A stretch of DNA of 61,435 nucleotides, the filler included, from Hausera hauseri (Eukaryota): assembly GCA_046269625.1 (NCBI GenBank). It is 9 parts of 9 records of this genome, joined end to end, with 100 filler letters (N's around TTAATTAATTAA, not from the genome) between each part and the next. Parts side by side here need not be neighbours in the genome. Positions count along the whole stretch, not along the records: positions 24,805 to 30,162 come from JBJURY010271952.1; 8 more parts are not named here. One strand, 5' to 3'. The notes below the pieces were generated by a model. It made no database searches. It was not told where the DNA came from and was given only the letters and a program-made list of their open reading frames with translations. This document shows, one piece after another, positions 10,083 through 45,299 of the stretch (its first letter is position 1; the number at the start of each line of letters is the position of its first letter). Position numbers and translations under genes: made by a program.

Positions 10083-10176
10083 AGATATGGGTTTGGCAGT
10101 TATGGACGAGGCTTTTGTTTTTCTATCATTTGGTTTCTGATTCACTTTTGCATCACTAAAAAGCAAATTTTATAGT

Positions 10177-11283: not shown

Positions 11284-11322
11284 TCTTTCGTCACCTCTAT
11301 TCGTGGAAACGCAATATTTGTG

Positions 11323-14726: not shown

Positions 14727-15690
<964 letters not shown>

Positions 15691-17814
15691 TTTCGATAAT
15701 TTACTCAGTAAATTGCTATCACATCTCTGTATGATATCCAATATTGGAATAATAATATTGGAAGAGTTCTTTTGGTAATGATGTGACAAATTCGCAGCAA
15801 CAATCATGAAGAAATTCTTGGTTATTTAAATTGAGACTCTTGTTTGAATGACTGACGTCCTTGTAAATGTCCTTGTAAACATGAACAACCAATTCCTGCA
15901 TGTTTTTACGACCATCTGACACCAATGAGGTTTTCTTGTTAAACCAGGGATTTTAAATAATTCCATCAAAAAGCACTATGAACACATAACAACAAGAATT
16001 GATTTATTTAATTATTTTTTTTATCAATTTCTTTAATTTTTTATTTACAAGGAATTTATTAATACAGCTTTACATAGCATAAACCCAAAAATAAATACTA
16101 TCAAAAGCAAGATGAGGATTTCAATATCGAGTGATATCACTGTTAGAAATTCTAGAATTATTTTCATTTTATTAATTATGTACAGTCATTTAAAAATCGA
16201 TCGACCAAGATCCTGATCACAAACAATTCTCGAAACACACCTTGTAGTAGATTTAATTGTAGAATCTTTAATGATATAATTTCGCTCCGTGATAAACTTT
16301 TCGTCTTCCAAATCTCCGAGTACAGTATCGTGGACCGCTAAAATCATATTTCAGGAATTTACTGTTTTACACATGACATTACTGTCAATCAGCATAGATA
16401 TAACGGCAGCTCGAACGTTAGCAAGAAAGATACGTATCCTAACCAATTAATAGTCATGAATAACTTGTATCAGAGTTTTAACACTAACAGAGTCAATAAA
16501 ACCACACGTTGAAAAATCAATGATTATATGTTTATATGATTTCCAGTTTGATATGATTATATGAGACTGCTAGAAGCGCGATCACGCTGAGAATACATTC
16601 TGTCCTCGTCAGTATTTTCCACGCTTGGCTTTAGTGATTGACAGTATAATTGGTTTTATCATCATTATGTACCAAATCGTCGGCGATTACGAAAACGAAT
16701 AACAAAATAGAAAACAATAACAGTGTATTTACATGTAAAATTCAAAGAAGCACGACCTCGTATATACCGCTGATGTTTTATCAGAATTATTAAAGAGCTC
16801 CTAATATGTCTGCAAACAGTATGGAATGGTATGTGCTGTAAACATTTGATAAGTGCTGGTCCTGTTCTTGGACAATTGATCGATCCATTCCTTTCATTAT
16901 CACAATTACGTTAACTATAGAAAAGGAAATTGAATTACAATTAAGAATTTTTATAACTCTAATGAAATTAATGTCAAATATGGAAGAATCTTTCAATTCC
17001 GAGGCACATTTCAAAAGTGATAGCATTGGAAATTTATCTAACTTTGCAATTTTACCAAATTTACCTTGGCAAGCCGGAAGAACAGCCGAAGATTTACGTG
17101 GTATTGCAGTAACATGCTTATGGAGTATTCTGGTTGAATACTGTAAATTGTCAAAAACTTTATTTCCGAAATCCGTTCGCTGATTTGTCATCATTTGTTT
17201 GGACGGTATCCAATCTGGTGGGATTTATAGACAATTCTATTCTATACTCGACGGTGAAACTGATACGATGGTGTGAGATTTGTTATTGTGTACCGTTCGT
17301 CTGGCAACCATTTTTTCTATTTCGCCTTTTATTAACGATTCCTATTTTTTGTTTTTCTCATATGTTTTTGTTCATAACGTCCACCGTTGACACACCATCG
17401 ACGCTTTTAAACATAGCCTTCAGTTGTGGTTGCCATTTCAGACCCATTTACTTCGATACTTCAAATACTTCAAAATGTTTACGGTTCCCCAATATTGACA
17501 ACTGTCCATTCACTTCGTGCAGGTTCGCTGACTTATCGTTCATTACCGAGGCCGTGTCCTTCACGTTGCAAATTAACATGCAAAGCGGTATAGCAATTGC
17601 TGAATACTTTGCTGCAACATTACAGCTCATCAGACTTGATTTAAAAGAATATGACGTAAAGACAGCAGGCCTTACGGCTATTCCTCACCTTATGAGAATA
17701 AGTATATGTATAACTAGATTTGACATTGTTCCGACCCCTAAACGTGATAGAAGTTATACCGATTCGTTGTCAATGATTCTCCACAGTACGCATAACGAAG
17801 CTGTTGAGTTCTGA

Positions 17815-20800
17815 GTACATCACAGCGTGACCGACTGCTCAACCGGTTTTCCAGTGTCTGTCGGTGCTACGCTACGGTCCGTTGCGTCACCACTAGGGCC
17901 AACACCAACTCTTTCCTTTTTATTCTTCCTAAATAATCGTCATTTTCTCACACTCGATACAAGGTATTTTATAGACACACATTACTTGCACAATTATATG
18001 CTACACTTTGCTAATTTTCCTGATTTTTACCTCATTTACAACAACTTACCTGTAATTAATGTCAATTTTCGCAACCTTTTTGTTCCTTCTTCCCGTTATG
18101 TCATTATTCACGTAGACATTCGCTTTCGTGGTGGCATGGAATCTTCGACCACCATTAATACTACTAACAAAACTACCTCTAAACCATCACCTTTCACTTT
18201 TTACCAAAAATCAACGACCGTCACCACGCCATCTACTTTCACCATTTATACACCTTCCATCCCGCCATCCAAACACACTTCTCCGTGTACAGAATACTTT
18301 ATGTCCACGAAAAGTCCAGCAAAACCTGGCTTAACTTTTACAAACTTTGGCTGCAGTCTAACAATAATAATGATTTATCTGCCAAAGCTCATAGTTTACT
18401 TTGCCTCTTACCGAACTCAGTAAAGAATTCTCTTCACGATATTTTAGACATATTTTAACAATCCGACCCTTACACCCATCTCTATAACGCAGTTTTAAAA
18501 CTCACGGAACCGTCTATGGAATCTATAATCCATAGATTCTCTCGATCAACTGCAAACACTCGGCGTTAACAAACAAAATAATTCCCATCTCTTACGACGT
18601 TACTTTCTAAACGCATTACCGATCCAAATCAGAGGCCTGCTTTCCGTCGTCGAGGAATTGACGGCGCTGGATAAGTTAGCCGAACTTGCGGACAAAACGT
18701 ATGAGATATAACATTTGAACACTCAACCTATTATTTCAGCAGCACTTACAGCAAACGACAACACAGAATATCAAATACAACAGTTACGAGCCGAAAATGG
18801 AGCCATACATAATACGACTAACAATATCAATGATAGATTAAATAAAATCTCTTTGTCTCAACGAAAGAGTTTCGCCTCCGATCGCACACGCTGTGTACCC
18901 AGAGGTCGGTCACCTTCTTCTGCACGACCGCTGATCTGTTTCTACCATGATAGGTTTGCTCATAAAGCATAAAAATGTCATCTTGGGTGCCGCTTTTACA
19001 CCAAAAGGTATCAGTTAACAACCCTATTTGCATCTACCACGCAAAATTTAAGAATGAGGCACATAAATGTATTCCTGGTTGTACCTTCAGAAGCAGCACA
19101 CAGCATACGAACGTCGGACATACTGTCTCGTCTTCTAACAGCCCCCCAAGTTCATCACTGCAAAAAAAGTAATTCTACCGCCAGAACTTACGGCGAGTCC
19201 TGGCGAAGATTATTCTTCAGTTTCTACCAGCCGAAAACTTTCTTTCGCCGCATTTACTGTAAAAGCAGTAACTACGTTACCAACATTCCGCCCCATAGAT
19301 TTCCTCGTCGATTCAGATGCAGCGATTTCCTTACTGCCGCTCACTTTTTCAATTCAAGACACTTTATCCAACTATGAACCTCTATTTACAGCTTCCGGAC
19401 AACATCTACATGTTTCCGGTACTTGTAGGCTTTCTTTTACCCTTCCGACATTTCCTTCAATGTCTCACTGCACGTTTAATGTTGTGAACGTCCAGACAGC
19501 CATTTTAGGATCCGACTTTCTTTCGCACTATAATCTCCTTGTCGATTGCAAACAACGTTGCTTAACAAGTGGTTGCAATAAGGAGCGATTCGATCACGTC
19601 GATACCATTTCAACTGTCGTACAGGTGAAGGCAAGTCGAAAACCGATATTAAAAACCTTTGAACAAACCTTTTTCTTACAATCATGGTACCTTGTTTTAT
19701 AAATTACTAAAGAACAATACTACTGACGATTGAGGTTTGCACGGCGATGAAAGTGATTCCGTTACCACTGCAATATCATTAGATAAAACTACCAGCTGCA
19801 ATACCACCTTTAATACTACCATCCTGCATTGAATACCACTTCATTTTAGATCACCAAATAACGTCCAAATTGCAACAGTTACCGATACAACCACCTCGCT
19901 CCCACCAAAATTTTCACAATTACCTGCAAGTCTGCAGCAGTTTATCAACTTATCCTCTTCTAGAATAATTAAAAAAGACAGGTCTTTTACTCCAGAAAAT
20001 ACCACTTTTCACCACATTGTGACACAACATCAAAGACTTATCCGCCAAAAAGTGTCCATTATCTCCTCGTCGTAGACATGCAGTTGAAGCCGAATTTTTA
20101 GAACTCGAACATTCCGGCATTGTACGTCGCTCCAAATCCCCATGGTCGTCACCATTACATGTCGTGCAAAAGAAAGACGTAACTTTTCGACTATGTGGCG
20201 ATTATCGTCAGTTGAACACTTTGACAATAATGGATGCATACCCGCTACCACTCATTAAGGATATCTTACACCTTCTTAACAACATCACAATTTATTCTAC
20301 CATCGATTTATTCAAAGCCTACCACCAAATTCCGGTGGCACCTGAGGATATCGAAAAAACACGTCACTAGTCCTTTTGGCCTTTACGAATATCTGTACAT
20401 GACTTTTGGCTCACACAGACCTTCCAACGCCACATCAATGCTATACTTTCTGACTTTCCATATGCTCATACCTATATTGATGACATATTAGTTGTTTCGT
20501 CTTCGACTCAACAACACGAGGAACATCTCAGATCAATTTTTCAACGTTTACACCAGTATAACCTGCAAATTAATTTCGCCAAATGTCACTTTCTCCAGAA
20601 GCGTAAACTTCCTTGGTCACATTATTTCTTCCGAAGGCCACTCGCCTCAGTTCGATCGAGTTGAAGTGCTAAAAAGAGCGCTGCTGCCTTGAACAACAAC
20701 AGAAATGAGGAGCTTTTTGGGCACTTTGCACTTCGTTTACAAGTATGTGCCGTACTGCTCCGAACTTACCGCAACATTTGCCCACTTAAGCGGCAGCAAA

Positions 20801-22784
20801 AGACTTTAGACAATCCAGTGGACACCCGAACTGGTTAACAGGTTTGATAAGCTACGCGAAGGAATTAAGATCGTCGACATTCTCGCTTTCCACAAAGCAG
20901 AAAATCAACCGCTCGAAATTTTCTCTTGTAAGCTAACATCTCCTGAAACTAGATATTCAACGTTCGATTGAGAATTATTGGCCATCGTTCTCAATTTAAA
21001 GCATTTCTCCCACCTACTTGTCGCTCGCCATTTTACTTTACAGACAGATCACAAGCCCTTTCTAAACATCATGGCTATGAAACATCCTTCCTCACGCCAA
21101 GAACGACAGATATAATATCTGTCGACATTCAACTTCGACATAAAACATATTAACGGGCTTAAGAATTTGGTTGCCGATTTCTTATCTAGGACGGTTGGTT
21201 CGATTAATTTTTTACCAATCTTCACTCAAGTACAACTTCAACAGAACCAGCCACCTCAAGACATGCTTAATTTTTTTAAGTCCTGCACAATTGTCGACGA
21301 CGTGGCCTTAGACACTTCCAAACCAAGCCATTCCGTAATAATTCTCGCACCACCTTTACAACGGCAAGCATTTAACAGTGCACATTCGCTACACACCCTG
21401 GCGCTAAAGCCACCTTTCGTTTACTCCACCGACAAGTAGTTTGGCCGTCAATGCGTTCCGATGTGCAGGCTTGGGTTAAGGAGTATGTGGCCTGTTAGAA
21501 ATTCAAAACAACTAAACATTTAAAGCCGCCACTATTCCACTTTCCATTCACATCGCGTTTCGAATCCGTGCATATTGATATCGTCGGTCCTCTTCCTCTG
21601 GACAACGGTCATCAATTCATTCTCACTATGATGGACCGTTCCTCGCGATGGCCAGAAGCCATCCCTCTGCGAAGCACAAATACCGACACAGTAGCTGACG
21701 TTTTCATTCGTACATGGATTAGCAGGTTTGGATCACCTTGCTTCTTCATCACGGACCAGGGTCCACAGCTTGAATCCAATCTGTTCAAATCCCTTGTTAA
21801 CCGATTGTAGTTCCAGCACATACATACTATGCCTTATCACCCTCAATCGAATGGCATTTGAGAACGTTTCCACCGAACATTGAAAACGTCACTAAAAATC
21901 CTTGCAGAGTCCAAAACTGGTTGGACGAATGTTCTTCCACTTGTTCTGCTAGGCTGACGGAACACTCCGTCTACTTCTATAGGATGCTCACCACTGAAGC
22001 CTTATTCGGAACTCCTGTACGGTCATTATTGGACCTTAGTGCCCTATACGACTCTCCTACAAATGAAACGATACGGGCAGCGCAAAATCACTTTTTTGCA
22101 ATAATTAAAGATTCGTTCTGCAAGTTACTTCAAGAAGACAAAACATATTTACCTGAAGACTTGTATTCGGCAAAATTCGTCTGGCTAAAAATTTAAACGC
22201 CGTGCGGTTTTGAACCACGGTATTTGGGATCTTACAAACTCCCCCAATTGCACTGCCACAATGCCATTATTTCTAAAGACGGTAAAGAACTAGCGGTGCA
22301 TATCAACGACGTCAAGCCCGCTTTTTTCGTACATGATACTCCCCAAATTGAATCTTCTAACCCTTTTCTGACTCCGCCATCTTTCTCCCTGTCAGTTCCT
22401 CCAACCCCTGCCTCCCTTTTCATTCCAAACCCTACACCTACTCCTTTACTAGAACCTACTCAAAAATTCCCTTCTACTAACCTCCACACTTTTCTTTTCT
22501 TTTCTACTACATTTTGTCCTCCATCCCCTTTATCGTCTCTGAACGATACCTCACCTTCAACGACGAAATCTGACATTGTTTACCTCAATCACCTCTGCAA
22601 CCAGATTCAAAGACAATAAATATTTGCAAATCCGTTACATTTAGTACCTACAGTAAGGAGATTAACACTGCAGGGATACAACGTCTTAATCATACAAAAA
22701 CCTCCTAAACAGCCTGCACTGTTTCAACACATTTTCAACTTTCTTACCCTGTAGTCTCTTCTTTGCTCCGGGAGCGGGAGATGA
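17815..22784 (+). mobile_element. Ty3/gypsy element, CsRN1/Kabuki-like family copy 1 (gag-PR-RT-RH-INT, decayed)
   Basis: Gag LRRYFLNALP...LDKLAELADK and CHCC knuckles; PR FLVDSDA...ILGSDFL; RT LCGDYRQLN, YIDDILV; INT HIDIVGPLP, ITDQGPQ, YHPQSNG; collinear with 57039-61381. Confidence 0.93.
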
Positions 22785-23665: not shown

Positions 23666-25283
23666 GTTACTCCTACTTACATAGGAGTAAGTATATATAC
23701 TCCTACTAGAATACCTCCTATTAGTATATTATGTATATAATAACTAAATCGAATGCTGTATTGGATTTTTACGAGTGGATCAATTAATTTTTCCGCACCT
23801 GTAGCTTACATTTTAATGATAAATGTACGTCTAGTCAAAGTTTAATGTACGAGCCAAAATTAAATGACAAAATATTGCTTCAAAGATAACAAATTAATAA
23901 CAAGTTAGTTAAAAGCAAACTGATTTGATTGAAACCATTGCATGTGATGTCAAGTGTGCTCATTGTCTTGAATAAATAACCACGGTGAATCCGTGAAGCA
24001 TCATCATATTCACCTCATACTTTACCGCTGATTCTGATTGTTCAATAAAACGACAGGGTTCAGGTGACGCATCAAGCTGATTTTTGATATACTGGACATT
24101 GAAAGTGCTGGTTCAGAGGATAATTCATCAGACAAAGCTAAAGTCTTCCATCAATCAGGAGAGGTATACGAATGTACAAATCAGGTTTCATTGTGTCTGT
24201 GCTTACATGTATAGTGACATCAGTGGTGTTCTAGATTTACCGCTACAGCAATTGCATTTCGGTTACACTAGGAATCCAAAATTATCAGGTGCCTTATAGA
24301 TGTATTGCGATTTGATTCCCGCCCAAATTAACCAACCATTTTAATGATACACTTCCTCTATCATTTACCACATTACAAACAATAAAAACTCGTTCAATTT
24401 GTTTATTAAATTTGTCAGTATATCCCTTAATCTATAGTTCAACAAACAACATATTGAAATAAAATTGTGTGCATTTCAGCAACTAATTAAAGCATTTCGC
24501 TGAAATTAATTTTATTTCGGGAAAATTGGTACAACCTTTCATACTATAATTAAATTTACATTAAAAGTTACATATTTTACAGAAAACAGAATTCACCAAA
24601 TTTCTTAGTCTACGTGAAAAAACTCATTTTAGAAGTATATATTACATTGCCTAAAAGTTTGATTGCCGCTAAAAGAAACACTTAGATAAAACCTGTCTAC
24701 ACCANNNNNNNNNNNNNNNNNNNNNNNNNNNNNNNNNNNNNNNNNNNNTTAATTAATTAANNNNNNNNNNNNNNNNNNNNNNNNNNNNNNNNNNNNNNNN
24801 NNNNGAGAAGGTCATGACAAACATACACGCATTTTCTCTTCGACTTTGAGTAGCCTCTCGCATTTTTGTAACATTAACGTAGAACTGTCTATCCCACCCA
24901 AGCATCTAGTTGAAAAGAGTATTAAATATTAAGCGACATTTCTGGGTATTCGTAATACGCTAGCATCCAAAACTGGAAAAGTGATGCTTCTCTACGTTTC
25001 TGTTGAAGTTTTCAATCTGACTGAGGCTCTTCGTTTTACAGAAAGAGGTCAATTTTTTTGTTATTGTGAGGACACCTCCAGTCATACTCAGCGACATTTG
25101 TGAAGGTAGCACTGCTGCATGCTGTTTCGCAAGAGCTTTGTGGTGTTTTAAAACAAGTCCTCTCAAAATACACGAGCAAAATGGTGTTAAACTGCACGCC
25201 AAAAACAAGTGACTGCCGAAGGCAAACTATGCGAGGACATTAAAAACAGTTTATATGTCCTAAATAACAGAGGAATTGTTAAT

Positions 25284-25638
25284 GATTGATTGATTGATGG
25301 TCTTCCATCACCGCACGTTGGGTGAGCCCCGATAAGGGTTGTAGTCCTTAGGACTATGGAGTAGTGGCACTGAGCTTTCCTGTTGTAACGGTGATGTCTA
25401 GGAGGCTGGACCGAGGTCCTCAAGGCTTCCGTGCAATGCTTGGCCTGTTAGAAACGAACCACCTCACAACTGGGGACCATGTCCAACTTCCGCCAGTTAG
25501 CCAGCAGTTTTCCCTACCGTAGCCCGGGACGACGACAGGGACGTCTGGCAAAGGATCTTGGCCGACTATGGTTCGTCTGCCCTGGCACTGAGTATCAGGG
25601 TCGGCTATGGGTCGCCGTCCACAGAGCACCTCCGTCCC
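25284..25638 (-). mobile_element. Complete non-autonomous non-LTR retroelement (SIDE/SINE-like, probably RTE-derived) with 5' HDV-like ribozyme and (AATC)n tail
   Basis: GC-rich island; flanking direct repeats AGGAATTGTTAAT (25271-25283) and AGAAATTGTCAAT (25639-25651), 11/13 identical; AATCAATCAATC 3' tail. Confidence 0.85.
25492..25638 (-). ncRNA. HDV-like self-cleaving ribozyme with long J1/2 insertion
   Basis: Minus strand: P1 GGGACG(25638-33)/CGUCCC(25531-26); P2 GCCAG(25549-45)/CUGGC(25496-92); P3 ACG/CGU; L3 UCCCUGU; P1.1 CC/GG; P4 hairpin; J4/2 CUAA with catalytic C at 25500. Confidence 0.85.
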
Positions 25639-28285
25639 AGAAATTGTCAATAAAGCCATACACCCGGATGCAAAAAAGGACCATATTATTTATTGGGAGA
25701 AAAACAAAACCTCATTATTCATTTCAGTTTGAAATCAATTCACCGCCTCTTTGTTGCAACATCGCTATCTCTCTATACATCGCAAGGAAACAACAAAGAC
25801 CGTCTGGCAAGTATTTAAAGAAAAGTCTCATTGATTATAGCTGAATCGTAAAAATCTAAACCTATGATTTTACAATGATATTGATATCAAAATAATAATG
25901 TACCCAATGTGAGAACGGAACAAATTTAACAATAAACATAAGGCAGTAAACTACTCTTATAAGTTCTCTCAGTGATTTCCTCTATTTCTTCTCTTTTTAA
26001 TTCGTCCTTTATTGCCATCAGTGTATAAGTCAAACAAACAGTTGATTACAAATGCATTAGATGTTCTTTCATCTACCAGTTCTCCTCCGAAATTTTGAAA
26101 TAATCCGATACATTTTTCGCCCACTTCTTTAGCTTTTTCTTGAGTTACATATTTACCACATAATGGAGACGTTTGTTGCAATAAAGCAAGTGTATTATTA
26201 GTAGATATTTTTGGGATTTCTTTTCCGAAATAATGAATAAGGAAATTTCGTTCCTGCATACCGCCAATAAACAAAGGTTCGTATCTTGACAAATGGTTTG
26301 AGCATTTCAATATGGTCCACTGTTCCTCATTATCATTATCATCATAATCAACCGGTTAAGTGTACTTAATTTCCAATTAACAGTATGAATATAATGGATC
26401 AGTTCTATCGGAGTAAATGTTTGAGTAAATAACAACCTCAGCTCACATATTTCCCTCAAATCTTTTGCTAATTTATCATAATTTACGCAGTTGCATATTG
26501 ATTGATATTCATAAGGAAACTCCAAGGGTGATTTTTTTACATACTCGAATTGTTTTTGTATCAATGTATTAGTGAGTGTATAATCAGATATTATTTCCAT
26601 AACATCCGAAGCGACTTGATTTGGCGTATTGTCCATTTCTTCATCAACAGTATATGTTCCATCTTCTTCCTCATCATCGAGTGTGTCATTCAAGGAATTT
26701 GGGACTTTTATTAGTTTTTTTGCGTTTAGAGAAACGTTCGTTAGATTTGTCATCGTCGTTGCCAAAGAATTTACTCATTATCAACAACGAAAGTACCCAT
26801 AATAATAATGTTGAGGTCCATGAAGAATTAGGGTGATGAGATTTAGTCTTGACTGCTTCTGTTACAATGATCATGGAGAGAAAACATATTCCAATAAGGG
26901 ATAACGTTCCCAGTGAAAATGTGGAGTAACCCTTGATACCTGATGATTCGCGCTTTTTATCCTTTTCTTGAAGGTCTTGAATATGCATTGCTCTCGTTTC
27001 ATTAGCTATGTCGTCCATATATTTAATGCTATTTCCCGCAAATTGTAATCAATCTATCTTCATCCACTGTTCAGGAGGGAGATTACTATCTAAAGGCTGT
27101 CCCATTCTTCTGTTCCAGACTCGTTTAACCTCTTCTACCTCATTAATGAGTTCTCGACCTCCTTTGTTCATATTATGATGTTTAAAGATTTTTATTGCTC
27201 GACTAGCGGCTACATAATAGTGATGTTTTGATTTTCCTGGACTAGCTAAATCAGGAATCGTATAATATACTTCTTCGCAACTTATCTTCAAGAAAAATTT
27301 GTCCAGAGCGGTTAGTGTATTAAAATCTAATTTTAGGTACTCGCATATTAATTTTTTTATGGGTCTATACTGTTCATCCGTTATTCCGCACTTCTCGTGG
27401 TATTTACTACGGAAATCTCTTAATTCCGTTATACTGTTTATAGGTCTTTTGACTAATTGTTGTGCATGATTTATGCGTTCTGGTGTGGCTAACACAAAAT
27501 TCTCTAGCCGGTGTCGATTAGCGGCTTCTCTAGTTAACGGAAGTGGTGGTAGATTCCCCCTTTTCGTTGAGGCAATTCAAAATAATTTTGTTCAATTGGT
27601 TTAACTTCTTTACATTGCGCCTGCTTAGTAAGGTCTATTTTTCTTAGCTTCATATCGTTATACACTGGGAATTTGGGGCTCTCTTCCGGTTGATGTTTTT
27701 CAATTTCCTCTCTCAGTCGTTTAATATTTTCTTCAGCTTCTTCCAGCTTCTTACCTAAGACGATATAAATCACGGACGGCTGCATCTCGCTTGTGGTCTG
27801 CATTTCCATTAAGTCAGGATATATTGAAGTTGTTGATATAGGTCTTGATAGGTCTTGAAGCGAATTTCGTGGTAGTTTCTGTGGGACTCTTGCTATACTA
27901 TTTATCGAACAAGTGTCCATGTCGGTTATCAAAGGCAAGAGTACTTGTTTTCTTGCTTGATCATTCAGGGAGAAATTATTGGTTTCTTTATCATCAACTA
28001 TCATACGGCTGTTAAACATATAGTATGCTAATATCAACAGTAACATGACCGTACTGCTCCACGCATTTGTAGCAGTAGTCGTGCGCGTTGGTTGAGCATT
28101 TGCACATCCGAATAATATAAGCAGTATTAGCGTCAACAGGGTTATTGTAAACAATTTAAAGGGACTACCGAAAATTGTAGGTGGGGTATTAATTGCAGGT
28201 ATTTCCATTATTCGCGTTTGCGTTATTTTCCGTGCTAGTGTAGATTCCGTACTTTGTTCACTGATTTGCTATAATGTAGCATAAT

Positions 28286-29455
28286 TCAACGGGGGGGGAC
28301 AGCCTCTTCTCCTGGTGCGAACCACCATTGATCATTAGGTTGAGGCATGGTATCTTGGTAACCTTCGCAACTGAATATGATTGATCTTCCGATAACTTTC
28401 AGTTCTGCTCCCGTCAGTTTGTATAGTACATCTAAACCAATAATAAGATCAGAATACGACTCTTGTGGGTTGGCGTAACATGTAAAATCAATATACCCTA
28501 TGGTTAGATCCAATTTTCCGCATGCTTCGGGTATATAATATGTAATTCGTCTATATAATCGTAAACTTATACGAGTCAGCGGAGTAGTGGTATCAAGTTC
28601 CGCATTAACGTACTTACAGTACACCTTGACCAATATTGGTATCAACAAAGGATAATCATTATAATTCTGACGATAATGCATATTATATAATAACTCTAAC
28701 CTTTTTATCTCTTCCTCGAGCTCGTTCGCATTTTTTCCATATTTCTCCAAATCCTTCGTTTTTTCCAACGAATTTGTAGCTACGTCTATTACTATATCGT
28801 AATCTATTAGCGTATCTCTACCTATGCTACAAGGAATGTTGGAATTTTCTAGTATATGGTATAAAATCTTTGATCGCTTGTTTTTTAATTTGGTCAAGGC
28901 TGTAACTACGCCTATCACCTTTAGCTGATTGCCATTTATTAGTTTGTGGTTTATCTCACTACTTTCATTTAATTTTAGTTTTAAAATTTCTATTGTAGTC
29001 TTACTTAAGTAATTTTTTGCTGCTCCTGTATCTATTATTGCTTCAATTTTAACTTTATTTATAGTTATAGTTGTAGTTACCATATTATTTGATCCATCTT
29101 CTATAAACGCCATCATTGTATTTTTATCTTCCGATTGCATTCTGTTCCTTAGGGGATACCTACAAGGTGGTGTTCGTTTTTGTTCCGTATTCTCGTCCTC
29201 CAACTGCATTCTACTCCTTAATGGGTACTTGCAAGGTGGTGTTTGCTCCAGTTTGCGTTCTTTAGCTACTGGTCTACATCGTTGTACACTCATCCAAGAG
29301 GTTTTATTTGGATTAGACAAATTCTGCAATTCTACACTTGATTCAGTTATTTGTAATATCTTGTATGGTCCTTTGTATGGTAATTTCAATTTCGGGCTTT
29401 CGCCGTGTTTACAAGTCTCATCTAGTATATTAACCAAGTCTCCGATTTGGTACAC
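28286..29455 (-). CDS. Integrase C-terminal (GPY/F) region fused to two retropepsin-like domains
   Basis: 389-aa open frame with YKGPY, a duplicated PPCxYPLRxRMQxEDxNT, a DTGA protease and a second DTT protease-like domain. Confidence 0.7.
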   Translation of the reverse strand: MYQIGDLVNILDETCKHGESPKLKLPYKGPYKILQITESSVELQNLSNPNKTSWMSVQRCRPVAKERKLEQTPPCKYPLRSRMQLEDENTEQKRTPPCRYPLRNRMQSEDKNTMMAFIEDGSNNMVTTTITINKVKIEAIIDTGAAKNYLSKTTIEILKLKLNESSEINHKLINGNQLKVIGVVTALTKLKNKRSKILYHILENSNIPCSIGRDTLIDYDIVIDVATNSLEKTKDLEKYGKNANELEEEIKRLELLYNMHYRQNYNDYPLLIPILVKVYCKYVNAELDTTTPLTRISLRLYRRITYYIPEACGKLDLTIGYIDFTCYANPQESYSDLIIGLDVLYKLTGAELKVIGRSIIFSCEGYQDTMPQPNDQWWFAPGEEAVPPR

Positions 29456-29479
29456 ATGGGGTTTTGTCTTCTTGTCGTA

Positions 29480-30127
29480 CTAATCTTTGTAGTTTTCTTG
29501 TTGATATTTAATTTTTAATCCTGCTCTGATCCATGCTTCTTGTAATATTTCCTGTAGAACTGTTGCATAATCCAGTTCCTCCATCAGCTGTGACTGTGGT
29601 TGTTTATATTCAAGGTCAATTGACATAATATCTCCTCTGCCATACAATAAAAAGAAGGGTGATTCTCCAATTGTCGTATGAAGACTTTGTCGGTAAGCAT
29701 ATACACAAGGTTTTATGTATAGATCCCAATCAGCTGGGTGATCATATGCGTAACTGGATCTCATAATTGAAAATTGTTTATTAAAAGCTTCTACCGCGCC
29801 GCTGGCTTGTGGATGGTAGGGCGATATAAATTTATGATTAACTCCTAGTATTGCCAATACTTTTTCCATAAGTTTGGTGCAAAAATTACTTCCTCTACGC
29901 GATATCATTGTCATTTGTACTCCATATTTGAATATTATGTCGTCTACCAATCTCCTGGCCATAACATCCGTGGTTTGGTTTACCATTGGCATCGCTATTG
30001 GAAATTTTGAGTGGTAGTCAATAGCTGTAAGTACACATGTATTTCCTCTAGCGATGGTTTGTAATGGTCCAACTATATCAATGCTTATACAAACGAATGG
30101 TGATGCTAAAACTGGTACTGGTTTCAA
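29480..30127 (-). pseudogene. pol: Ty3/gypsy integrase catalytic core
   Basis: ISIDIVGPL, AIDYHSKF, ISRRGSNF (catalytic D mutated), PYHPQASGAVEAFN. Confidence 0.92.
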
Positions 30128-30339
30128 TGGTGTTTTTCTTGCTTGGAAATTTCCTCTTCTTTNNNNNNNNNNNNNNNNNNNNNNNNNNNNNNNNNNNNNN
30201 NNNNNNTTAATTAATTAANNNNNNNNNNNNNNNNNNNNNNNNNNNNNNNNNNNNNNNNNNNNCGTTTTGATACACGTTTCTTGCCGCCGGACACCTGTTT
30301 GGTAGGGTTACGTTTAACAATCGTTTTCAGAAAATTCTT

Positions 30340-31520: not shown

Positions 31521-32366
31521 AAAATAATGTACATTGCACAGCAACAAACTACAAATACCATTTCCATGCTCATTCAGATATTACTGCCATGGAAGTCGAA
31601 GACGATAAAACGATTCTGCTCAATGATGATGATGGTTGTGCGAATGATGAAAGTTCATATTGGTCAAAAAAAAATCTAATGTCAAACTGCTGGAACCTGT
31701 CCAACAATTAGAAAAACCGGGCTATTGTCTGCGTATTGATTGTCTGCAAACGAAACAGGAACTTGCTCAGAAAGCAGCAGCAGCAGCAAAACAGACGTTA
31801 AAAAGGCAAAATGCAATGATTGAAATACGTAAACGAAAATCAAAACCGTCGGCACGCCAAACAGAGATATTTTTACCCCAACGAATTTTTTGCAAGCATG
31901 AAATGCATTTTCTGCAAACTGATTTTGCATTTTCTGCCCGTACTGATTTCATTGAATGATCCCGTGTATCTATGCGCACTCAAGTACAGGTAGCGAAGTA
32001 ATACGGCTTTTGTGTGAAAATTTGGATAAACTTTTTGGTGCTCTACATCAATTAAACGTGGATGTAAAGTTGAACGAAACGACCGCGCAACAGCAATATG
32101 TCGATTTACCAGCGAAGAAAACGAAACGGTTTGATTTCATCGCTCACGAAATGTTTCATGTACCCGATGATGATGGTTTAGAGTATCGACTGAATATCGA
32201 ATTGCAAGGATACAAGGAAAAAGCCGGTATCAAAAGTACGATTTGGCGTGTAGCTGAAGAACAATTTAATTATCAATAAATTTTATTTTACCGATCTTCT
32301 TTCGTCAACCCAATTAACGAGTATAAATGTACGTAAAATTTTAATACTGGCATAGGAATAAAAATA

Positions 32367-32830
32367 ATGAATAATGTAAATTTATCTTAACAGACAAAAA
32401 TGCCTTTGTACAGAGACGTGTTACGGCAAGCTGTGCAAGCTACGATGTGTTTTCCAATATCAATACGACAATTTCCGACAGCACAATCAAATGCATAACG
32501 ACTGGAATTCGATTGGCAATTCCACCACGTTATTACGGCCAACAGATATCGAAAAGCGGAGTGGCAAAGCTCACATTGACGGTTGTGGGCGGCGTTATTG
32601 ATTTAGATTTCTGCGGTGAAATTAAGATGTTGTTGGAAAATTAATCCGAAGAACTGTGTACTTTTTCGAAAGGCAGTGCAATCGCACAAATCGTTTTTCT
32701 TCACTGTGAAGAGGCAGAATTCAGTGTAATGTCACCGAAACAATGCGGATTGTTTTGTGTCAGTGAATTGACATGAAATTAACGCAAAGAATTTGGCTTT
32801 GGTCATATGGACAAAGCCACCTATGTTTAG
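32367..32830 (+). pseudogene. dut: dUTPase
   Basis: ASYDV, TGIRLAIPPRYYGQ, SKSG, GGVIDLDFCGEIK, SAIAQIVF, FGFGH motifs. Confidence 0.9.
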
Positions 32831-32906
32831 TGATTTGTTATGATAATGTTAATAGTTAGTTGTTTTGCTTGTATTATAAGCAAAAATGATTTTTACCAGA
32901 TAAGTA

Positions 32907-33389
32907 ATGGCGACAGGATTTATAGATATTGAAGCTTTGCAATGTGATAATTCTCGGTACATAATAAAGGAATTATGCATTATGGATGTCGGTAACATTT
33001 TCAAAACGCTTATGTATATATTTAAGCCCGGTATTGTGTGGAAAGACCTGACAAAAAAGCGAAAATTACAGATGGATTTCTCTTTCGACATCGTCATGGA
33101 CTTCATTGGTATGAAGACAATTCAAAATGTTGTGAGCCATGTATCATGGGCGAGATATGTGATCGTTTTGACATTAAGAATACAATATTTTAAATTAAAG
33201 ATCAAATTTACGGCCAAAAGTTTACATAACTCTATTCACAGTTTTCCGAGTTGCGAATAACGACGTATTTGAACAACTCGCTGACGATGGTGCCTGACAA
33301 TATCCGATGTGGTATCGTGATCATGTGCCGCATTGTGCTTACAAAAATGTCCACGGCTTTGTATTGACTATATTTCATGTAAATAAATA
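32907..33389 (+). pseudogene. Small DEDD/DnaQ-like protein typical of Polinton/viral-like insertions
   Basis: GFIDIEALQ...YIIKELCI...YIFKP...FLFRHRHGLHW; C-terminal C..H..HCA. Confidence 0.6.
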
Positions 33390-34301
33390 AATGTATTTCT
33401 CTGTTATTTCTCTGTTCAAAACTAAAAATACATATATGTTATATTAATAGTAATTATGGACTATAATGGAAATTGCACATATTTATTACGAATGACTTCA
33501 GTATCATGAAAGTAATTTGTATAATTGCAATGAGACAATACTCACAAAGTAAATATCTATTGTTTGCAGTGAAAACAAACCTTTGTTATAAATAGAGATA
33601 CAATTTCCGTTCACGTTTGTCTTTTTCAAACAATATCTTTTGAAAAAAATTCAGCAGTTGTGATAGTCTTTCAAAAAAGCCATGGTACAGCGAAAATTCG
33701 CTCAGAAATTCCCGGTTATATAATGGATACAACTTACATTATCTGCGCAACGCTATTCAATTGCTATTGACGCAAACGGTCTAAATCAACCGGTGAAATA
33801 TGGTCTATTTGTGAAAAAGATCAGCGACGTTGATTTGAATACAATGGAAGACACGATTAGAAAAGTTGACAGTAATTTGTTGTTGACTAACGATATCCGA
33901 GACATCGTCGATTTTTCTCGAAGGAAATATGACCAATATCGTCCGTTCACATGGCAGAGAAACAGTAGCAACAGCAGCCTTGCCACTAGAAGGAGCTAAA
34001 GTTCATTTAACATTGAAGATGAAAGGATACAAGAAAGCTGGAAAGTTTATGCTGATTTGACTTACTTTGTTCTTGATTTTAGCTTATGATTAATAAATTT
34101 TATTGATTTTGTTTTTCATACTGTTTCTCATCACATTAAGTTAAATATATAAATCTGTATATATATATAAATTAAATGATAATAAAACAAAGGGCAAAAA
34201 CAACGAACAATATACATTATTTACACAAAATAAACAGATCACAATAAATTGTCACAGTAATTTGATCTGTCCGTATCATCAGCACCGAATTCATGCATGT
34301 T

Positions 34302-37220
34302 TTATTTTAAATACCAATGTCCATACGCCGAACTGTTATTATTCCATACATACTTATGCTTATCATCATTGCATGTTAAATCGTCTTTTGTATTGGTCAC
34401 GGTATACTGCTGGTACTCAATCGATCGGATGATCGTTTGTGACACAACAGCCTTTGATTGTCCTCCTCCCGCCTCCTCCACTGCCTTCTGCTCCTACTTC
34501 ATAGATACGGCAATAATCGCCGTGATTTATCTCCGTCGGGCCAAATGAACTCCTTTAACGCGCATTTTCGGTCCACCGTCATTTAAAAGGATATAACATT
34601 TTGGCCTTACAAATACCCATTCTTGATACTGAACCCTTCCTTTACTTTCATCCTTGAAGCAGCCGATTTTGTAGGTGATTGCGCTGCTGTACAATGGATG
34701 ATCCGGTGGATAGTTTAACGTTTTCAGTAATCCATCTGACTGCATTTGCTGCAGTAGCTGTTCGCGATTGACTTTCTTCAAACGCAGGAAAAAACTATCT
34801 GTATCACCGGCAATTATACTAATGTCACCACCGTCAAACATTTGACGGTAACGTGCCGAATCGCGATACTGCAGCTCATACATTCGCAACTTGCTCAGAT
34901 CCAATGCCACTTGTCCTATATAACTTGGCCGGTCCAGTAAGACTTCTTCCCTGTTTAAACAAACGGCAACCAATTCATCGTCAATATGCATTGACCGCCG
35001 AAACTGTGCCTTGCTGGTATACGTAAAGAGCCGCTTTTCCAAGCCGCTTTTTCAGATTCTCTACTGTTTTTCGTACAGAGATCGTTTTACAGCTTGTAAT
35101 AGTCCTTTTCGAACTTTGTACAAGCTTCGGCTCGTTTCTCCGAATTTCCCTCTATGTACTCCTTAAACATGAGAGCCAAAATAAATTGGATTGCACGATG
35201 CAGCTGTGTGACGCGCCCACCGAGCTGCATGTAGAACTGTAGCAGACGCCAATGGACCACGTAATTCAGCTTTGGTTTATGTGTCATGAGCAGTTTCTTC
35301 ACTTTTGAGCCTGGCGGACATTGATTAAATGGTGCGACCGGTAAATCGTCCAAAATGTCATGCAGCTCATCCGGTACCACGAGATCGACCTCCATCAGGT
35401 ATCCGACTGAGCTTGCCATGTCTGCTCGTGATAGGTTGACCATTATGTCGTCCAGATCTTGTCAGTCGACTACCCATTCAAATTAACCGTACGGGAAGGT
35501 TTGCGAATGGAGGTCGATCTTGAGATATGAGCCGTACAGGTTATTAATATCAATATACAGCAGTGATGTGGTATCGGCGGCGGCGGCGCTGACCTGATGC
35601 TTGTTGACAAATGCCATGCCACCGCGAATACGAACATCAAACATTCGGCACATTTCCGGGTTTTGCAGCAGCTTAATGTCTCGATCTAGTGACATTAGAG
35701 CTGACTCCAAATTCATTCCCGTATGGAATAAAAGTTGAGTGGCTCCGACCTGTCTTCCCTCAGCGCTTTGTTCCAAAATGCTTCAAACACATCGGCTAAT
35801 AAGTACACGTTTAGTGTATAATACTAGAGCATGTAACCCAACATGTTTGTACAGTTCAGTTCTGTCCAAGATTCTTGTGCTCTCCGATATTCATCTTCTG
35901 CGATATCTGTCGATCGAGGAGGTAATTCCTTTTCTGTCCCGAGTCGCTCATATAATGTTGCAAAGTCATATGGAAATATGACTTTTTTGCGTGAAATATG
36001 TGCGGGGAACTGCGTCAGTACTAGCGACATATCTGGCAAGACATTTATCAGCTTTTCCAGAGATTCATTGAAAAATTGCAATGAATGAAGGAAGCGTACC
36101 TGGAACCGGTTAATACAAGCAGACGATGACAAGCAATGCTGAATCGTAGTCGGAATTATGGAGAATTCCCAGTGGGGGAAGCCGCTAATAGCCCATTTGA
36201 GAATATGGTGACAGTCATAACCTTGGAAATTATAAAAAGTCACCGAGAGGAATGGTCGCACTCGCCTTCATAAATTGCATGAATTGCATGCTACTCCCAA
36301 GTATCGACCGGTAAAATGGTCGTGATTCATTACGAGCCGTTTCTGTGCATCAAACGGTATTATTTTGTGGCACACTTAGCATTCATCAGTGACAGAAAAA
36401 AGCAACGGTTTATATTCGTCTGTCCAAATCGCTGGCTTATTGCAATTGTTGCAATACCATGGCGCGATTTCCGTTTCAACTATGGTGTCTAACTGTTGTA
36501 GAAAATCATGTACACAGTTCCAACGATGGGAAACGTAATACTGCGGTTGTCTGGAGGCTTTTATTGGTACTAGCAACATACCGACGGCAATTGGAACGTG
36601 CTTTTGATCGTATACATTGTGCCGTTGTAGAATTGCTTCGATATGAAGGACTGTCCGTTTTTTGACCAGTAACTAAATCTCAACTCCTTTTTGACCGGCA
36701 TAACATACATTGTGGTTTCTGACGAAGTTTGACTACTCAGCGCTACATGCATTTCCCATGTCTTTTTTCACCTGAATCCATGCAGACACACGGGACACCA
36801 TTTGCATCACATACGCTTCTTGATGAACTGGTCATGCTCCATGTTCAACAATCTGTCCAAATTGGTCACGGCCATGTAATGAAACTTTTCTTCATTCTCC
36901 AACAGCAACAAATTTACTGGGTGTCCAATTGAATTTCGACTGCGGTAAATTACATCCACGTGAGGATTCTTGTAAATTTTCACATCCTCCTGTATCTCTA
37001 CAATTGTGTTGAACCGGAACACGTTGATTGCCAGTGTCAAATTACGCCGTTCAAAAGCTGGAATGGATTTTAGTTTTATCGGTATCCAACACTCGTCGTA
37101 GTCAAATTCTGAGAATAATGAGCAGGCGAGAGTATATTGAATTACTGGTCAGATCTTTCTTCGTAAAACGTATCGAGAATGAAATAAGACAAAAACGACA
37201 ACGACGTATTAATTTCTTCA
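34302..37220 (-). pseudogene. Protein-primed family B DNA polymerase (Polinton type, with endonuclease VII-like insert), copy 1
   Basis: HDHFTGRYLGVACNSCNL, FYNFQGYDCH, KVIFPYD, IRGG, YIDINNLYG, YIGQVALDLSK, GDTDSFF, GCFKDE, RPKCY. Confidence 0.93.
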
Positions 37221-40309: not shown

Positions 40310-42344
40310 ATAATGTCCATAAGCAACTGATCGGTTTTTCTCAATCCATTGGCGTTTATCGTCAAAGGGATCCAATGCTTTCTTTTTTGAGCAGATTGAC
40401 ATAAGTTGATGGTTTTTACTGCCAATTCATTCTTGGTCCACTATAGTCCCACAACCGGTTTCATAAGCTTGTAAGTAGCTATCGAATTGTAAATCTGATT
40501 GTTTTAGATTTACACCCTTGCACTTGAGAACTGGTTTGTTTTGAGTTTTGAGAGCATAGGATTTCGGTCGTAGGAAAATCGCCTCCTGATACTGAACGCT
40601 GCCCTTGCTTTCGTCTTTAAATTTCCCAATTACTGATGCAAAACGAGTCGAATACAGCGGATCACTCTTATCATATTTTGATGTATCTAATTGTTCATTT
40701 GTTATCATTGCAGGTAAAAGTCGGGATTGTAAGTCCACACCACAGAATTCAATGAAGAAACTGTCAGTGTCACCAGCAACAACATTATGTTCACAATTGA
40801 ACTCCAACTTGATGTAATTCAATTCATACATTTGTAACTTAGACAGATCAAGTACGGCCTGACCGATGTATGATGGTCTATTTAATGTGACCATATCTTT
40901 GTCAAGGAGAACAGCAACCAGATCATCGGCTATGATAATGCTCTCTTTAAACTGGGCCTTATTAGCATATGTGACTAGTTTTTTAGGATTATTACACAGT
41001 CTAACGTTTGACCTATTTAGCAAATTCTTTACTGTTTTACCGTATAAGCTGTTGTTCTTAAGCTTAAAAAAGTCTTTTTCAAAAGGATTATTTGCGGCAG
41101 CCCTTTTAGCAGTATTTAGATCGATGTAATCCTTAAAGACATAACCCTGGTCAAACTCAACAGCCCGATGCACTTTCTCAACTACAGCACCTAACTCGAT
41201 GTACAACTGTAAGAGCATGTAGTGAACAACATAGTTGGACTTATGCTCATGTGTAAGCAGCAATTTCTTAACTTTAGAACCAGGTGGACATTTATTAATT
41301 GGAGCAAGAGGTAATTGGTCAAAATTATCATGTTTGTCAGCCGGAATGCTTAAATCAACTTCAAATACTAAGCCCCGTTTTTCCTTAACACAGTCAATGT
41401 AAGGTAATTGTTGGATCAGACTGGTCAAGACGTCCTCATCGTAAATCCAAGTCAGATTCGCAAATGACACAGGTTGTGATAAAGCCCAACTGTATAAATT
41501 ATTTACATCTATGTATAGGAGACTGGTACTTTCATCGGAGACAACCGTATGATTATTTACAAAAGTCATGCCACCGCGAATACCTGATTGAAAGAAATTA
41601 TACATCTCAGTATTTTGAATGAGTTCAATACGGCACGGATTCATTTTCAGTGCAGTTGGCCAAGATAAACCAGGAATAGAGACAAATTTAAGGGCCTCTA
41701 AACCATCCTGCAATTTAACCTCCTTTCTAAACCGTTCAAAGACATCGCCTAACAAGTATACGGCTACAACTGTCTTTAGACCAAATCAGTTGTGCTTCCG
41801 CATAATTAGTATAACTAACACAATCCAATTTCGGTGGTAACTCCTTAATAGACTGCAAGTCAGTGAAACATTTGGCTGCAGTATATGGAAAAATACCCTT
41901 TCCCTTAATAGTTTTAGAAGGAAAAGCCGACTCAGTAAATGGGTAACTGTCTAAGTTGGAAGCTAAAATCGTCAGTGAAGCCGGAAGAAACTGCAGCGAG
42001 TCGAGAAACCGAATAGATACTAACGTCTTTCCCGATTAGCGCATAATTGCATTCATTGTTAGGAACTTCTCTGTAGTTTGTGAGATAACATTTAATCCCC
42101 AACTTCCGAATTTACTAAATTCATGTTTCAAGATATGATGCAGGTCATATCCACGCAAATTGTGAAATATAACAGGTAAATTATTATCAAATTTTACTTT
42201 AACGTCGCACTGTTGATAACAACGTACTTGATTCGCAACATGACCGGGTGTGCGCACCGTGACCTTTGGCCTTCTGATGACCTTATTCGCCTCATAATTA
42301 CGAATAAGCTGTACTTTTATGTCAATTACGTGTTTGTTGAACAT
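40310..42344 (-). pseudogene. Protein-primed DNA polymerase B, divergent copy 2
   Basis: FHNLRGYDLH, GIRGG, YIDVNNLY, KLKNNSLYGK, YIGQAVLDLSK, AGDTDSFF, GKFKDE, LRPKSY. Confidence 0.93.
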
Positions 42345-45299
42345 TTGGTCAGCAACATGAATATTGACATTGGCCGATGTAGTATCAATAGCGTAATCAA
42401 GTATAGCCTACTCGTTTTCGAAAATCGTTGAATCGCAATTTTTTATAAATTCAATAAAAGTCTTCTGGAACATGTTAGGGAAGTTAATAATATTTGAGGC
42501 CAACGTATTATATAGGTAATTCAATTTGAATACATCAACAATCAGGTCATTACACCATCCAAAAAGAAATGCCTCTGACAATTCCAAAAGATGATAGTAG
42601 AACTTCATAACTTTGCATCAACTGATGAAACACAATTGTCTTCATTGTTAGTGTGATTTTTCTATATGATAAAGATCTCTGAGAATTTACTGGCGGTTAT
42701 AAAATATAATTATCCAATTTCATCCGAAATATAAAAAAATGGCACAGCAAAGAAAAAAAAATTAACTTCAAATTTCAAGCGAGTTCAAAAATTTATTACT
42801 TTGTTTAAACAACTAAAAATTATTCACATATAACATAGTTTAAATCACAAGTCTGATACTAAATTCCTCATCGCAAGTATTTACAAAATAAACAATAGTA
42901 CATATTCGTACAAGAGTTCAAACACGTCTCACTGAATCCCTTATGGAATTGCCGTAAAATATAAGATCCAGCCACGGAAAATATGTTATTACTTATTGAC
43001 GACGTATTTTGCAATGGCAATCTGCATTCCGTTGTTATTGCCATCGGGATAAAATTCCAGTTTGTGACATTTGGGAAATAATTTCGTAACGGTTTTATTT
43101 TTGACGATTTTCAGAATATTTTCAGTGTAGAATGTTGAAGTTGTAATTTTCAATATCAACATTAATTGACGGATAAAGAAAAGCAAATATTTGCTCATTA
43201 TCCACAATGGCTGACTGAACTTCTTCGGCATAAAAAACTGCTTTGCAGGCAGTTGGCAATTCAATGAAAATCAAACGCCCTCTGGATCCATTTAAGAAAA
43301 AATGCGTTACCAATTCCGGAACCATCTGTTTCAATTTCTCATAATTTACATTTTGAAAGCAGGATATAATTAACGTTCGCAGTCTGCGGTTAATGATGAG
43401 ATTTGGTATTTCGTTTCGCTGACGAAAGTTTATAGATTTAGTGATAAATTTAACGGTAGATTGTTCGTCATTGACTGTTTCTTCTGTTTATTCTACTTCG
43501 TCTCTCGTTGAATCTGCTATATTGCCAATATGATCTAGTATGAAAATACTTTCATCGTCAGTATTCTTAACTTTCTTCGCTTTATGTTTTAACGGACTTT
43601 CGGTTATGCTTTTTAATTTACATTTCTTGCTTTTTACTTTGACTTCCGCTTCATTTACAATTATTTCGGCGTCATCTGCAACATCATCAGTCTTAAGATA
43701 AGTAACCTTTTGATTCTTCTGTTGTTTCCCTTTTGGTTGTTTCGGAATAGTACCGTGGCTTTTGTTTGCTTTATTCTTATTATTTTAATTTATTACTTTG
43801 ATTCATTTTGAGGATCACCAGTTAAGAAAAATGGAATTATGAACTTTTGAGTTTTGTTTCTGTTGCGGATGGACCAAAAACTTATAGCTGTTTCACCAAT
43901 ATACACAGTCTCTACTCTTCCACGGTTCCTCCAAATAACGTTTGACGTATTGGCAACGGCAATTTTTGATTTTTGCCGAATTGCTATCGTGATCGGATTC
44001 CCGAAATATCTTTACACTAACGAATGGTTTTTCCAAAGAGTGAGAAATTGATGACGTTCGGAACCTTTTTTTCCTTTTTTTGACAAATTATTTCTATATG
44101 CTCAACCATCTGTTGCAACGTTGCTTGTGGCTAATGCTCAATGAATTTTAGCGAATATTGTCCAATGGAATGATCTAGTTTGACAGATTTGCATCGGGAG
44201 TGTTTTTCCGAACTGGTACGGCCATATTTTTGATAACTGTAAATTATGTATTTTACTGTTGACTCTGGAATACCCAAACGATTGTCTAACAAAATGTAAT
44301 CTTGATTATTTAAAAATGTGTTGACGAGTTTTTCTTTATCGAAATCTCATACAGCTGATCATATCTTCCGCTTCTTCATCTGAGCATCTGTATTATCTGC
44401 ATCATCATCGTAACTTTCTTCGTCTGTTTCTGACGATGATTTTGTTGGTTCTGCAATCTCCAAGCTAATTTGAGACAAAGGAATTCTTCGAGTGACTACC
44501 ACTTGTCGCATTACTTGATTTATCTAATTTTAATACCATCAATGTTACTCATTAGTATTTTGTCATAAGACTTATGATGTTTAATAAATTCTCAAAGTCA
44601 TGCAGGAAACGCAAAAAATATCACCGTCCAAAATCCCTTCGTTCGAATTCAATTCGATCGATAGTCGAAAAGTTGTAAAGACTAGATCTTTGTCAATGAG
44701 TAAGACAAATGCAACGTTTGGCCTGTTCGAATTTTCTCCTTTAAATGTGGATGATACTTTGTGGAAAATATCGATTTGGCGGGAAAACAGTGGAGAATCG
44801 TTGTTGAGACAGACGATAAATGTCATTGATGGTGATTTGATAATGTTTTCCAACTGTTGTTAAGACGTGGGGTGATGATATGGGAAGTAGAGTCTCGATG
44901 CGAAGTCGTGGACGTCAACTGGGTCATAGGAACCTTTGTATTCGACAAAAAATCGAGTATGCAAGTGAGCTAACAATTGTAGAAATCGGATGAGTTTTAG
45001 GACTCGGTAACATTCGCTTTTATTGTTCTAGCAGTTGATGGACACAACGGGCACTTTATATTCCAGTATATCGGCAATATGGGTGATACCCTTCCGGCGA
45101 ATTAGACTTTAAAATTAGTTGAAACCTGTCGAGATGTAGAAGCACTAGTCTGAGATTTTGGATTACGGAAATTTTCGAGTCGGAAGATCGGGCCCAACTA
45201 TGGGTCCGACTTGGCGCCAACGGAGGCCCAGCCGTGCCAAACCAAATGGGTCAAACGGCACCGCCGCTGTGGGCACCATACTATGTGCCTTTGAAATGT

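Follow-up and report, generated by a model that had tools for sequence, protein, structure and literature searches.

Does a retropepsin belong behind the integrase of a gypsy-type element and, if so, what would it do there? Retroelement proteases precede RT, and two precursors must dimerise, so that activation is timed. The Pol order of Ty3/gypsy elements (Metaviridae) is PR-(dUTPase-like)-RT-RH-IN, whereas at the locus described here two retropepsin-type domains stand behind IN. The locus lies in a window (the whole stretch of DNA analysed) of 61,435 nucleotides from Hausera hauseri, assembly GCA_046269625.1, which consists of nine small contigs joined by eight N44-TTAATTAATTAA-N44 linkers (sites in 5022-57038). 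Because the contigs were joined artificially, neighbours across a linker are not real neighbours. The frame under study is on the minus strand of the piece 24805-30162.

The integrase-PR1-PR2 frame in this copy

The domains follow one another in one frame, in the order integrase, GPY/F, basic PPCxYPLRxR repeat, PR1, linker and PR2. The features of the piece are as follows.

29483..30160, minus strand: gypsy-type integrase core (Pfam rve, E 1.6e-10; 39% identity over 324 aa to the protein P0028)
29480..29482, minus strand: in-frame stop inside the integrase, between the core and the GPY/F part, a break in this copy
29280..29479, minus strand: integrase C-terminal GPY/F module (PYKGPY at 29363-29380; lower boundary approximate)
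29141..29239, minus strand: two PPC[K/R]YPLRxR copies (motif search; 69-nt unit)
28763..29083, minus strand: PR1, retropepsin (three Pfam models above cut-off)
28649..28762, minus strand: linker of ~41 residues (probable helix at 28685-28720)
28340..28648, minus strand: PR2, degenerate retropepsin-like domain (profile, feature and model tests; lower boundary approximate)
28286..28288, minus strand: stop that closes the frame here, probably a break private to this copy
27537..28268, minus strand: accessory ORF A1 (signal-like hydrophobic segment at 28104-28154 and a second hydrophobic segment)
25972..27576, minus strand: accessory ORFs A2-A5, in changing frames (ORF and homology comparison)

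The first-pass annotation described an intact frame of 389 aa. The open frame is real and slightly longer: 397 codons are open (29479-28289), and the earlier start is an internal GTG of this frame. The GPY/F tail, the duplicated PPCxYPLRxR motif, IGRDTL and IIGLDVL were all located in one frame, as that annotation had read them. However, the copy cannot be called intact, because a stop interrupts its integrase and the DDE triad has a substitution at its second acidic position. A chance open frame is ruled out, as the probability of 397 open codons at the local base composition is ~2e-13. The DDE integrase and the GPY/F module are of Ty3/gypsy type (Pfam rve, PYKGPY and tree position among gypsy polyproteins). 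The two PPC[K/R]YPLR motifs, at 29210-29239 and 29141-29170, lie 69 nt apart, and 44 of 57 nt are identical.

Thus, with its in-frame integrase stop, its substituted DDE residue and its accessory ORFs in changing frames, the copy at 24805-30162 is a dead fragment. The N-terminal side of the integrase core is cut by the assembly gap at 30163 (the contig ends at 30162). At the other end, family-level contig cover stops near 25900-26000, so the 3′ end of this copy looks truncated. The contig holds no direct repeat (LTR) and no Rfam match.

A thinly covered stretch parts the element tail from a GC-rich repeat at 25340-25663, which lies under very many contigs. The repeat is bounded by TG and CA, has AATAAA near its right end (plus strand) and gave no match in Rfam. 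It is possibly a solo LTR or a SINE of another family.

Recurrence of the layout in other copies and in relatives

Copies were sought in two public runs, X1 and X2, the second of which carries another organism label and comes from another study. Contigs were placed on the stretch at 80% likeness, and summed depth was kept out of the ranking of parts and out of copy counts. X1 gave 22,023 contigs on the stretch, 8,634 of them less than 90% alike, and X2 gave 2,004; most of the contigs are less than 95% alike. Only a fraction of 0.01 of the X1 contigs continue into unlike sequence. X1 is possibly the source of the window itself, and every listed piece covers only part of the stretch.

The junction between PR1 and PR2 recurs in X2, where the pieces 28671-28875, 28608-28806, 28450-28655 and 28348-28550 tile the end of PR1, the linker and PR2 with no gaps in any of them. 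These pieces carry 33-39 differences per ~200 nt (~83% identity to this copy). As the tiling is gapless, the short core of PR2 is a family trait. The junction between the integrase tail and PR1 is bridged by one X1 contig over 29097-29186, with at least 84 letters per side and one repeat unit skipped. A second joint has 79 letters per side and the others have fewer than 50; no bridge of this kind is among the X2 pieces listed. The joints in the repeat skip one PPC[K/R]YPLRxR unit, and one joint turns back within the unit. Thus, copies of the family differ in how many of these units they have. A junction unique to this copy, as might arise by recombination or nested insertion, is ruled out, since diverged copies bridge the integrase-PR1 joint in X1 and the PR1-PR2 joint in X2. 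The integrase-PR1-PR2 layout is real and family-wide, and it is seen here only in a dead fragment.

The same pieces bear on where the frame ends. Two listed pieces span 28216-28421, one from each run, and each has one gap against this copy; in addition, the stop just ahead of A1 is not common to the contigs that cover it (19 in X1 and 4 in X2). These observations suggest that the frame end at 28286, which had been taken as the end of the ORF, is probably a break private to this copy. There is no indel near 28290 among the differences listed, so the run-on into A1, which rests on these two pieces and one site, is put as probable. We thus read the polyprotein of other copies as one that probably continues from PR2 into A1.

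A1 has no Pfam family above cut-off. Its hydrophobic hairpin is repeated in A3 and is also found in the related element at 1-5021 of the window. A3-A5 are homologous to 3-830 of the window, and A5 also to 2562-2868. The piece at 1-5021 (plus strand) is the accessory region of this related element; its second A5-like unit (2562-2868) follows ~2 kb after 3-830, it has another hydrophobic hairpin at 3500-3658, and its internally duplicated tail is at least 5 kb long, with no Pfam family above cut-off. A2 (27052-27576, minus strand) resembles SAM-like core-binding domains of tyrosine recombinases in ESM Atlas features (0.92-0.94); its recognition value falls short of the mark, so that this is a weak lead.

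Relatives were searched for with the integrase stop read as X and among proteins of 1093-3120 aa. By far the best match to the integrase frame was P0028, an ENA protein of 1862 aa (270 bits; the 39% identity extends over integrase core and GPY/F). Its order is PR-RT-RH-IN, followed in frame by a signal peptide, an ectodomain and a transmembrane segment. In a quick tree of 50 integrases, the integrase of our element is sister to P0028 (SH-aLRT 92), and the next to join is the element at 5122-14626 of the window (80), in which RT and, at 13630-13307, a 5′ protease are present. Membrane-type proteins stand right behind the integrase in both, in frame in P0028 and in broken frames in the window element. 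As both nearest relatives carry membrane proteins there, the position behind the integrase is one that takes added modules in this group. P0028 thus resembles our family in having an in-frame extension behind the integrase, but its extension is a membrane protein and its sole protease lies 5′ of RT.

The element at 5122-14626 (minus strand) is a second decayed gypsy element. Its order is the canonical PR-RT-RH-IN, and the accessory ORFs that follow the integrase, a transmembrane protein among them, extend over ~4 kb. A possible exonuclease-like piece was seen in it by eye at ~7782-8138, with no Pfam match.

Could the locus be a DNA transposon instead? Ginger1 DNA transposons combine a gypsy-like integrase and GPY/F with an in-frame OTU or Ulp1 cysteine protease, according to the available part of the source (PMC2836005). 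An element of this layout with C-terminal aspartic instead of cysteine proteases, and with no RT, would look much like our contig, which ends inside the integrase and holds no RT; moreover, the size range of our relative search left out Ginger transposases of 500-800 aa. We nevertheless regard such an origin as very improbable. In the tree, which has no Ginger row, the integrase nests among RT-linked polyproteins as sister to P0028. More than 2 kb of accessory ORFs lie downstream, and the accessory region of the relative at 1-5021 is at least 5 kb long. No terminal inverted repeat was seen in the contig, which is without both element ends, whereas Ginger1 elements are described in that part of the source as 2.6-7 kb long, with terminal inverted repeats and no RT. 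In place of an OTU or Ulp1 protease, the C-terminal part of our frame matches only aspartic-protease families in Pfam.

We also looked at the wider set of 132 integrase relatives (80 loci and 52 proteins). These are mostly distant, and the 49 with room behind the integrase give a background rate only: none of the 49 has a protease in frame there. In three of the 132, a protease lies 2.5-4 kb downstream, where it follows the gag-type ORF of another unit and is no part of the integrase ORF. As these three belong to separate gag-PR units, the count of matches remains at zero. In our own frame, PR1 and PR2 are not the next element of a tandem array, which is ruled out by the lack of a gag before PR1 and of RT after PR2.

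These counts bear on a reading in which PR1 and PR2 are passengers, a protease piece of another element that an ancestor captured in frame and that was amplified and is now decaying without function. PR2 is heavily degenerate, PR1 has no relative closer than 36%, and a protease can come to lie downstream of an integrase through nesting or tandem arrangement of elements, as in the three cases just mentioned. However, those cases are separate units outside the integrase ORF, and our region is gapless in copies ~17% apart. In addition, codon positions 1-2 hold 13 of the 15 best-supported differences that set this copy apart in the frame (p 0.08; 40 of the 988 differences of this copy are listed), which hints weakly at constraint in the other copies. 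We consider decay without function distinctly unlikely.

The retropepsin PR1 and the degenerate domain PR2

The first-pass annotation counted two aspartic-protease domains and asked for a Pfam search of both halves; one of the two is clear. PR1 passes the Pfam cut-offs of gag-asp_proteas (31.1 bits against 28.2), Asp_protease and Asp_protease_2. It has IIDTGAA (DTG) at 29018-29038, a flap-type NG..VIG at 28910-28939 and IGRDTL (IGRD) at 28808-28825, and its Asp-to-Gly spacing of 70 is within the 68-73 of the compared retropepsins. Among solved chains, Ddi1, Ty3 Gag-Pol and ASPRV1 come closest to it, and its match to pepsins is far poorer than that to the profiles of retropepsins, Ddi1 and ASPRV1. 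A HMMER search with the 397-aa ORF (1.84 billion representatives) gave 26 matches, whose best stretch is PR1 only, at 21-34% identity; a word-index protein search, viral contigs and metagenome contigs gave no relative of this ORF. Judged by its sequence, PR1 is an ordinary retropepsin, and it is putatively proteolytic as a dimer.

It is conceivable that PR1 is the only protease of the family, relocated so that the order is RT-RH-IN-PR. Domain shuffles of Pol are known (Gmr1 order), and the long room behind the integrase in P0034-P0042 fits a shuffle of this type. PR1 looks fully canonical and the 5′ part of the element lies outside the contig, both of which would suit a relocated enzyme. Against this, both nearest relatives have a 5′ protease, and PR1 stands apart from those two: in a quick and largely unresolved protease tree (5 of 63 branches starred), they pair with each other at a support of 84 and PR1 is not grouped with them. 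Relocation fits either role of PR2 and overlaps the other readings; we think it quite unlikely.

PR2 is a different matter. No Pfam family matches it at E<=2, it has no BLAST similarity to PR1, the hhalign probability of the pair is 1.9%, and PDB gave no convincing sequence match. Thus, the name aspartic protease does not carry over to the second half on these tests. Weaker tests do find a likeness to retropepsins, so that the complete lack of it, which would have spoken against the first reading, is not what we see. On a retropepsin profile built from PR1 and 38 retropepsin segments and without PR2, PR2 scores 9.7 bits, which none of 2000 shuffles reach (best 7.0), and the profile finds exactly the two PR2 motifs, ELDTTTP (DTT) at 28580-28600 and IIGLDVL at 28424-28444. 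In ESM Atlas features, PR2 reaches 0.96 to an RVP cluster, a value that shuffled proteins reach about 1 time in 100 (a rate for whole proteins, not for parts), and the ten best family-bearing matches all share the family or clan. On this sequence evidence the homology of PR2 to retropepsins is weak.

The motifs show what is kept and what is lost. According to the available part of PMC11313796, the D-T/S-G motif and the hydrophobic-hydrophobic-Gly loop are the psi-loop hallmark, the Thr forms the fireman's grip, and Asp/Gly pairs count among the ligand-binding residues. PR2 retains the Asp, the Thr and the second loop, in which IIGLD aligns to the invariant Gly column. In place of D-T/S-G it reads DTT in this copy, with Thr replacing a Gly that is present in all 15 compared retropepsins. 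Its Asp-to-Gly spacing is 52, as against 68-73 in 15 of 15 (PR1 included), and it is ~18 residues short, in the flap and the adjacent strands. As PR2 departs from retropepsins in two features, it is not to be filed as a protease, and the name degenerate partner domain suits it better than second protease does. Its DTT may have arisen by decay in this copy alone, since a catalytic residue of the integrase of the same copy is likewise substituted.

Structure prediction is compatible with this description. When PR2 was modelled with AlphaFold on an imposed retropepsin alignment, the pLDDT was 66; the core is confident, the three C-terminal strands reach 70-83, and values fall below 50 in residues 47-66. 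Foldseek placed Ddi1 proteases first (E 5e-4, TM 0.46), and in VIA acid proteases filled the top 21 rows (Z up to 4.7). Because the model was built on an imposed retropepsin alignment, these two results are circular and indicate compatibility only. An AlphaFold model of PR1 plus PR2 without alignment has the linker helix at residues 129-147, at low confidence (pLDDT 30.5). A prediction of the PR1-PR2 complex, made without alignments or control folds, scored 0.30 against a mark of 0.34 and is evidence neither way.

Tandem retropepsins are not unique as such. Two such domains per chain are also found in P0002 (Caenorhabditis nigoni, CAO4382312.1), P0016, P0001 and P0013, where both domains keep D-T/S-G and normal length and are sisters in the tree (support 81-92). 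In the retroelements among these, P0002 and P0016, the tandem lies 5′ of RT. Thus, the 3′ position and the asymmetry are what sets our family apart. Both are gypsy polyproteins in which a fusion domain of the glycoprotein-B type stands between Gag and the tandem canonical retropepsins.

Two lobes in one chain invite a comparison with pepsins, which are thought to come from duplication and fusion (available parts of PMC11402058 and PMC4140852), and with tethered HIV-1 protease dimers. PR1-PR2 resembles both in having two protease lobes per chain, with the pairing of PR1 and PR2 putative; unlike PR2 with its DTT, both lobes of pepsin family A1 keep D-T/S-G. This comparison leads to an alternative in which PR1, linker and PR2 form an active single-chain, asymmetric, one-flap enzyme with one Asp per half, a pepsin-like protease re-invented from retropepsins. 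PR2 does keep Asp-Thr, IIG-LD and, in the model, the three C-terminal strands, with a flap region that is short and unconfident. Its Asp is kept despite the longest branch of the protease tree (2.92). The linker of 41 residues permits pairing, and engineered tethered HIV protease dimers of 203 residues are in the PDB. What speaks against such an enzyme is that the D-T/S-G Gly, found in all 15 retropepsins and part of the hallmark motif (PMC11313796, in the part available), is missing from PR2, and that PR1 and PR2, unlike the other tandem pairs, are not sisters in the mostly unresolved tree. We consider an active PR1-PR2 enzyme unlikely, though deserving of serious attention. If it were true, the enzyme would work without dimerisation of two precursors.

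A model for the module behind the integrase

Our best explanation, in which as a whole we have about even confidence, is that the element belongs to a many-copy Ty3/gypsy-type family in which the Pol polyprotein has come to reach beyond the point where integrase usually ends. The basic PPCxYPLRxR repeat resembles what we take to be the usual end of gypsy integrases, and this resemblance suggests that the protease module was added behind the old Pol end. We hypothesize that the added module cuts the long post-integrase polyprotein, with PR2 as a tethered, probably non-catalytic partner; taken as one statement, this seems to us evenly balanced between right and wrong.

The first part of the model concerns the substrate. 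In working copies, the frame would continue past PR2 into membrane-anchored accessory proteins, and the PR1-PR2 module would be a second protease unit dedicated to the polyprotein tail. The first-pass annotation had proposed extra proteases for the downstream polyprotein. The proposed role in tail processing is supported indirectly, in that the frame of other copies appears to stay open into the membrane-anchored ORF that follows PR2. The word extra presumes a 5′ protease beyond the contig. The element probably does have a normal 5′ protease as well, to judge by its nearest relatives, which have one.

The second part of the model explains how the two domains may share the work. PR1 would give the canonical half active site and, by cutting the precursor, would release the integrase as well as the accessory proteins. 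PR2, retaining only parts of the dimer core (Asp-Thr, the hydrophobic-hydrophobic-Gly loop and the C-terminal strands), would most likely be a tethered lobe that structures or restrains PR1 and not a protease itself, with catalysis carried out by PR1 homodimers. If PR2 is dead, it would be a tethered pseudo-protease and a possible built-in regulator. Conversely, if PR1 and PR2 pair in one chain, nature would offer in them an instance of the step from homodimer to bilobal enzyme that has been inferred for pepsins. That nature has placed a single-chain asymmetric protease, with a full flap lobe and a short DTT lobe, behind an integrase, so repeating the pepsin duplication-fusion independently and perhaps even as the only protease (RT-RH-IN-PR), strikes us as a minority prospect, and we doubt it. 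The PR1-PR2 module is a protein of fewer than 300 residues.

A family with a protease module after its integrase alters the accepted layout of Pol and points to a separate processing step for the long accessory tail. A parallel in the literature for such a tail is Burro, the giant gypsy-like elements of planarians, which are described in the available part of PMC6431247 as having extra domains in very long polyproteins, accessory ORFs and thousands of copies. Burro shares with our family a gypsy Pol with a long accessory tail. By that description, on which alone we compared them, its extra domains differ in lying between Gag and PR (env, BIR and BCL2 domains) or in accessory ORFs, and it has one protease, in the order PR-RT-RH-IN, and none behind IN. 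A literature search whose scope excluded most subscription journals, Repbase and supplements turned up no report of a gypsy integrase followed by an aspartic protease, nor of a duplicated protease in LTR elements. The layout with a protease behind the integrase is apparently undescribed.

Other elements are present elsewhere in the window, and their gypsy-type and family-B DNA polymerase fragments point to a repeat-rich eukaryotic source, probably an animal. Polinton-type fragments at 32169-37148, 40427-42407 and 47380-51258 are present twice, at 75-89% identity; they include a family-B DNA polymerase at 40430-41785 (PF03175, E 3e-16) and, by eye, a dUTPase-like piece at ~32400-32700. Host-type gene fragments, seen by eye and apparently degenerate, lie at 55572-56938 and 15463-15825 (both minus strand) and consist of a Kelch-repeat protein and an N-terminal piece of a protein kinase. 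Finally, a smaller gypsy family, which has its protease at the 5′ side and which we presume to be CsRN1-like, is represented by several decayed copies at 18000-22600, 45577-46314, 51400-54500 and 57000-61267.
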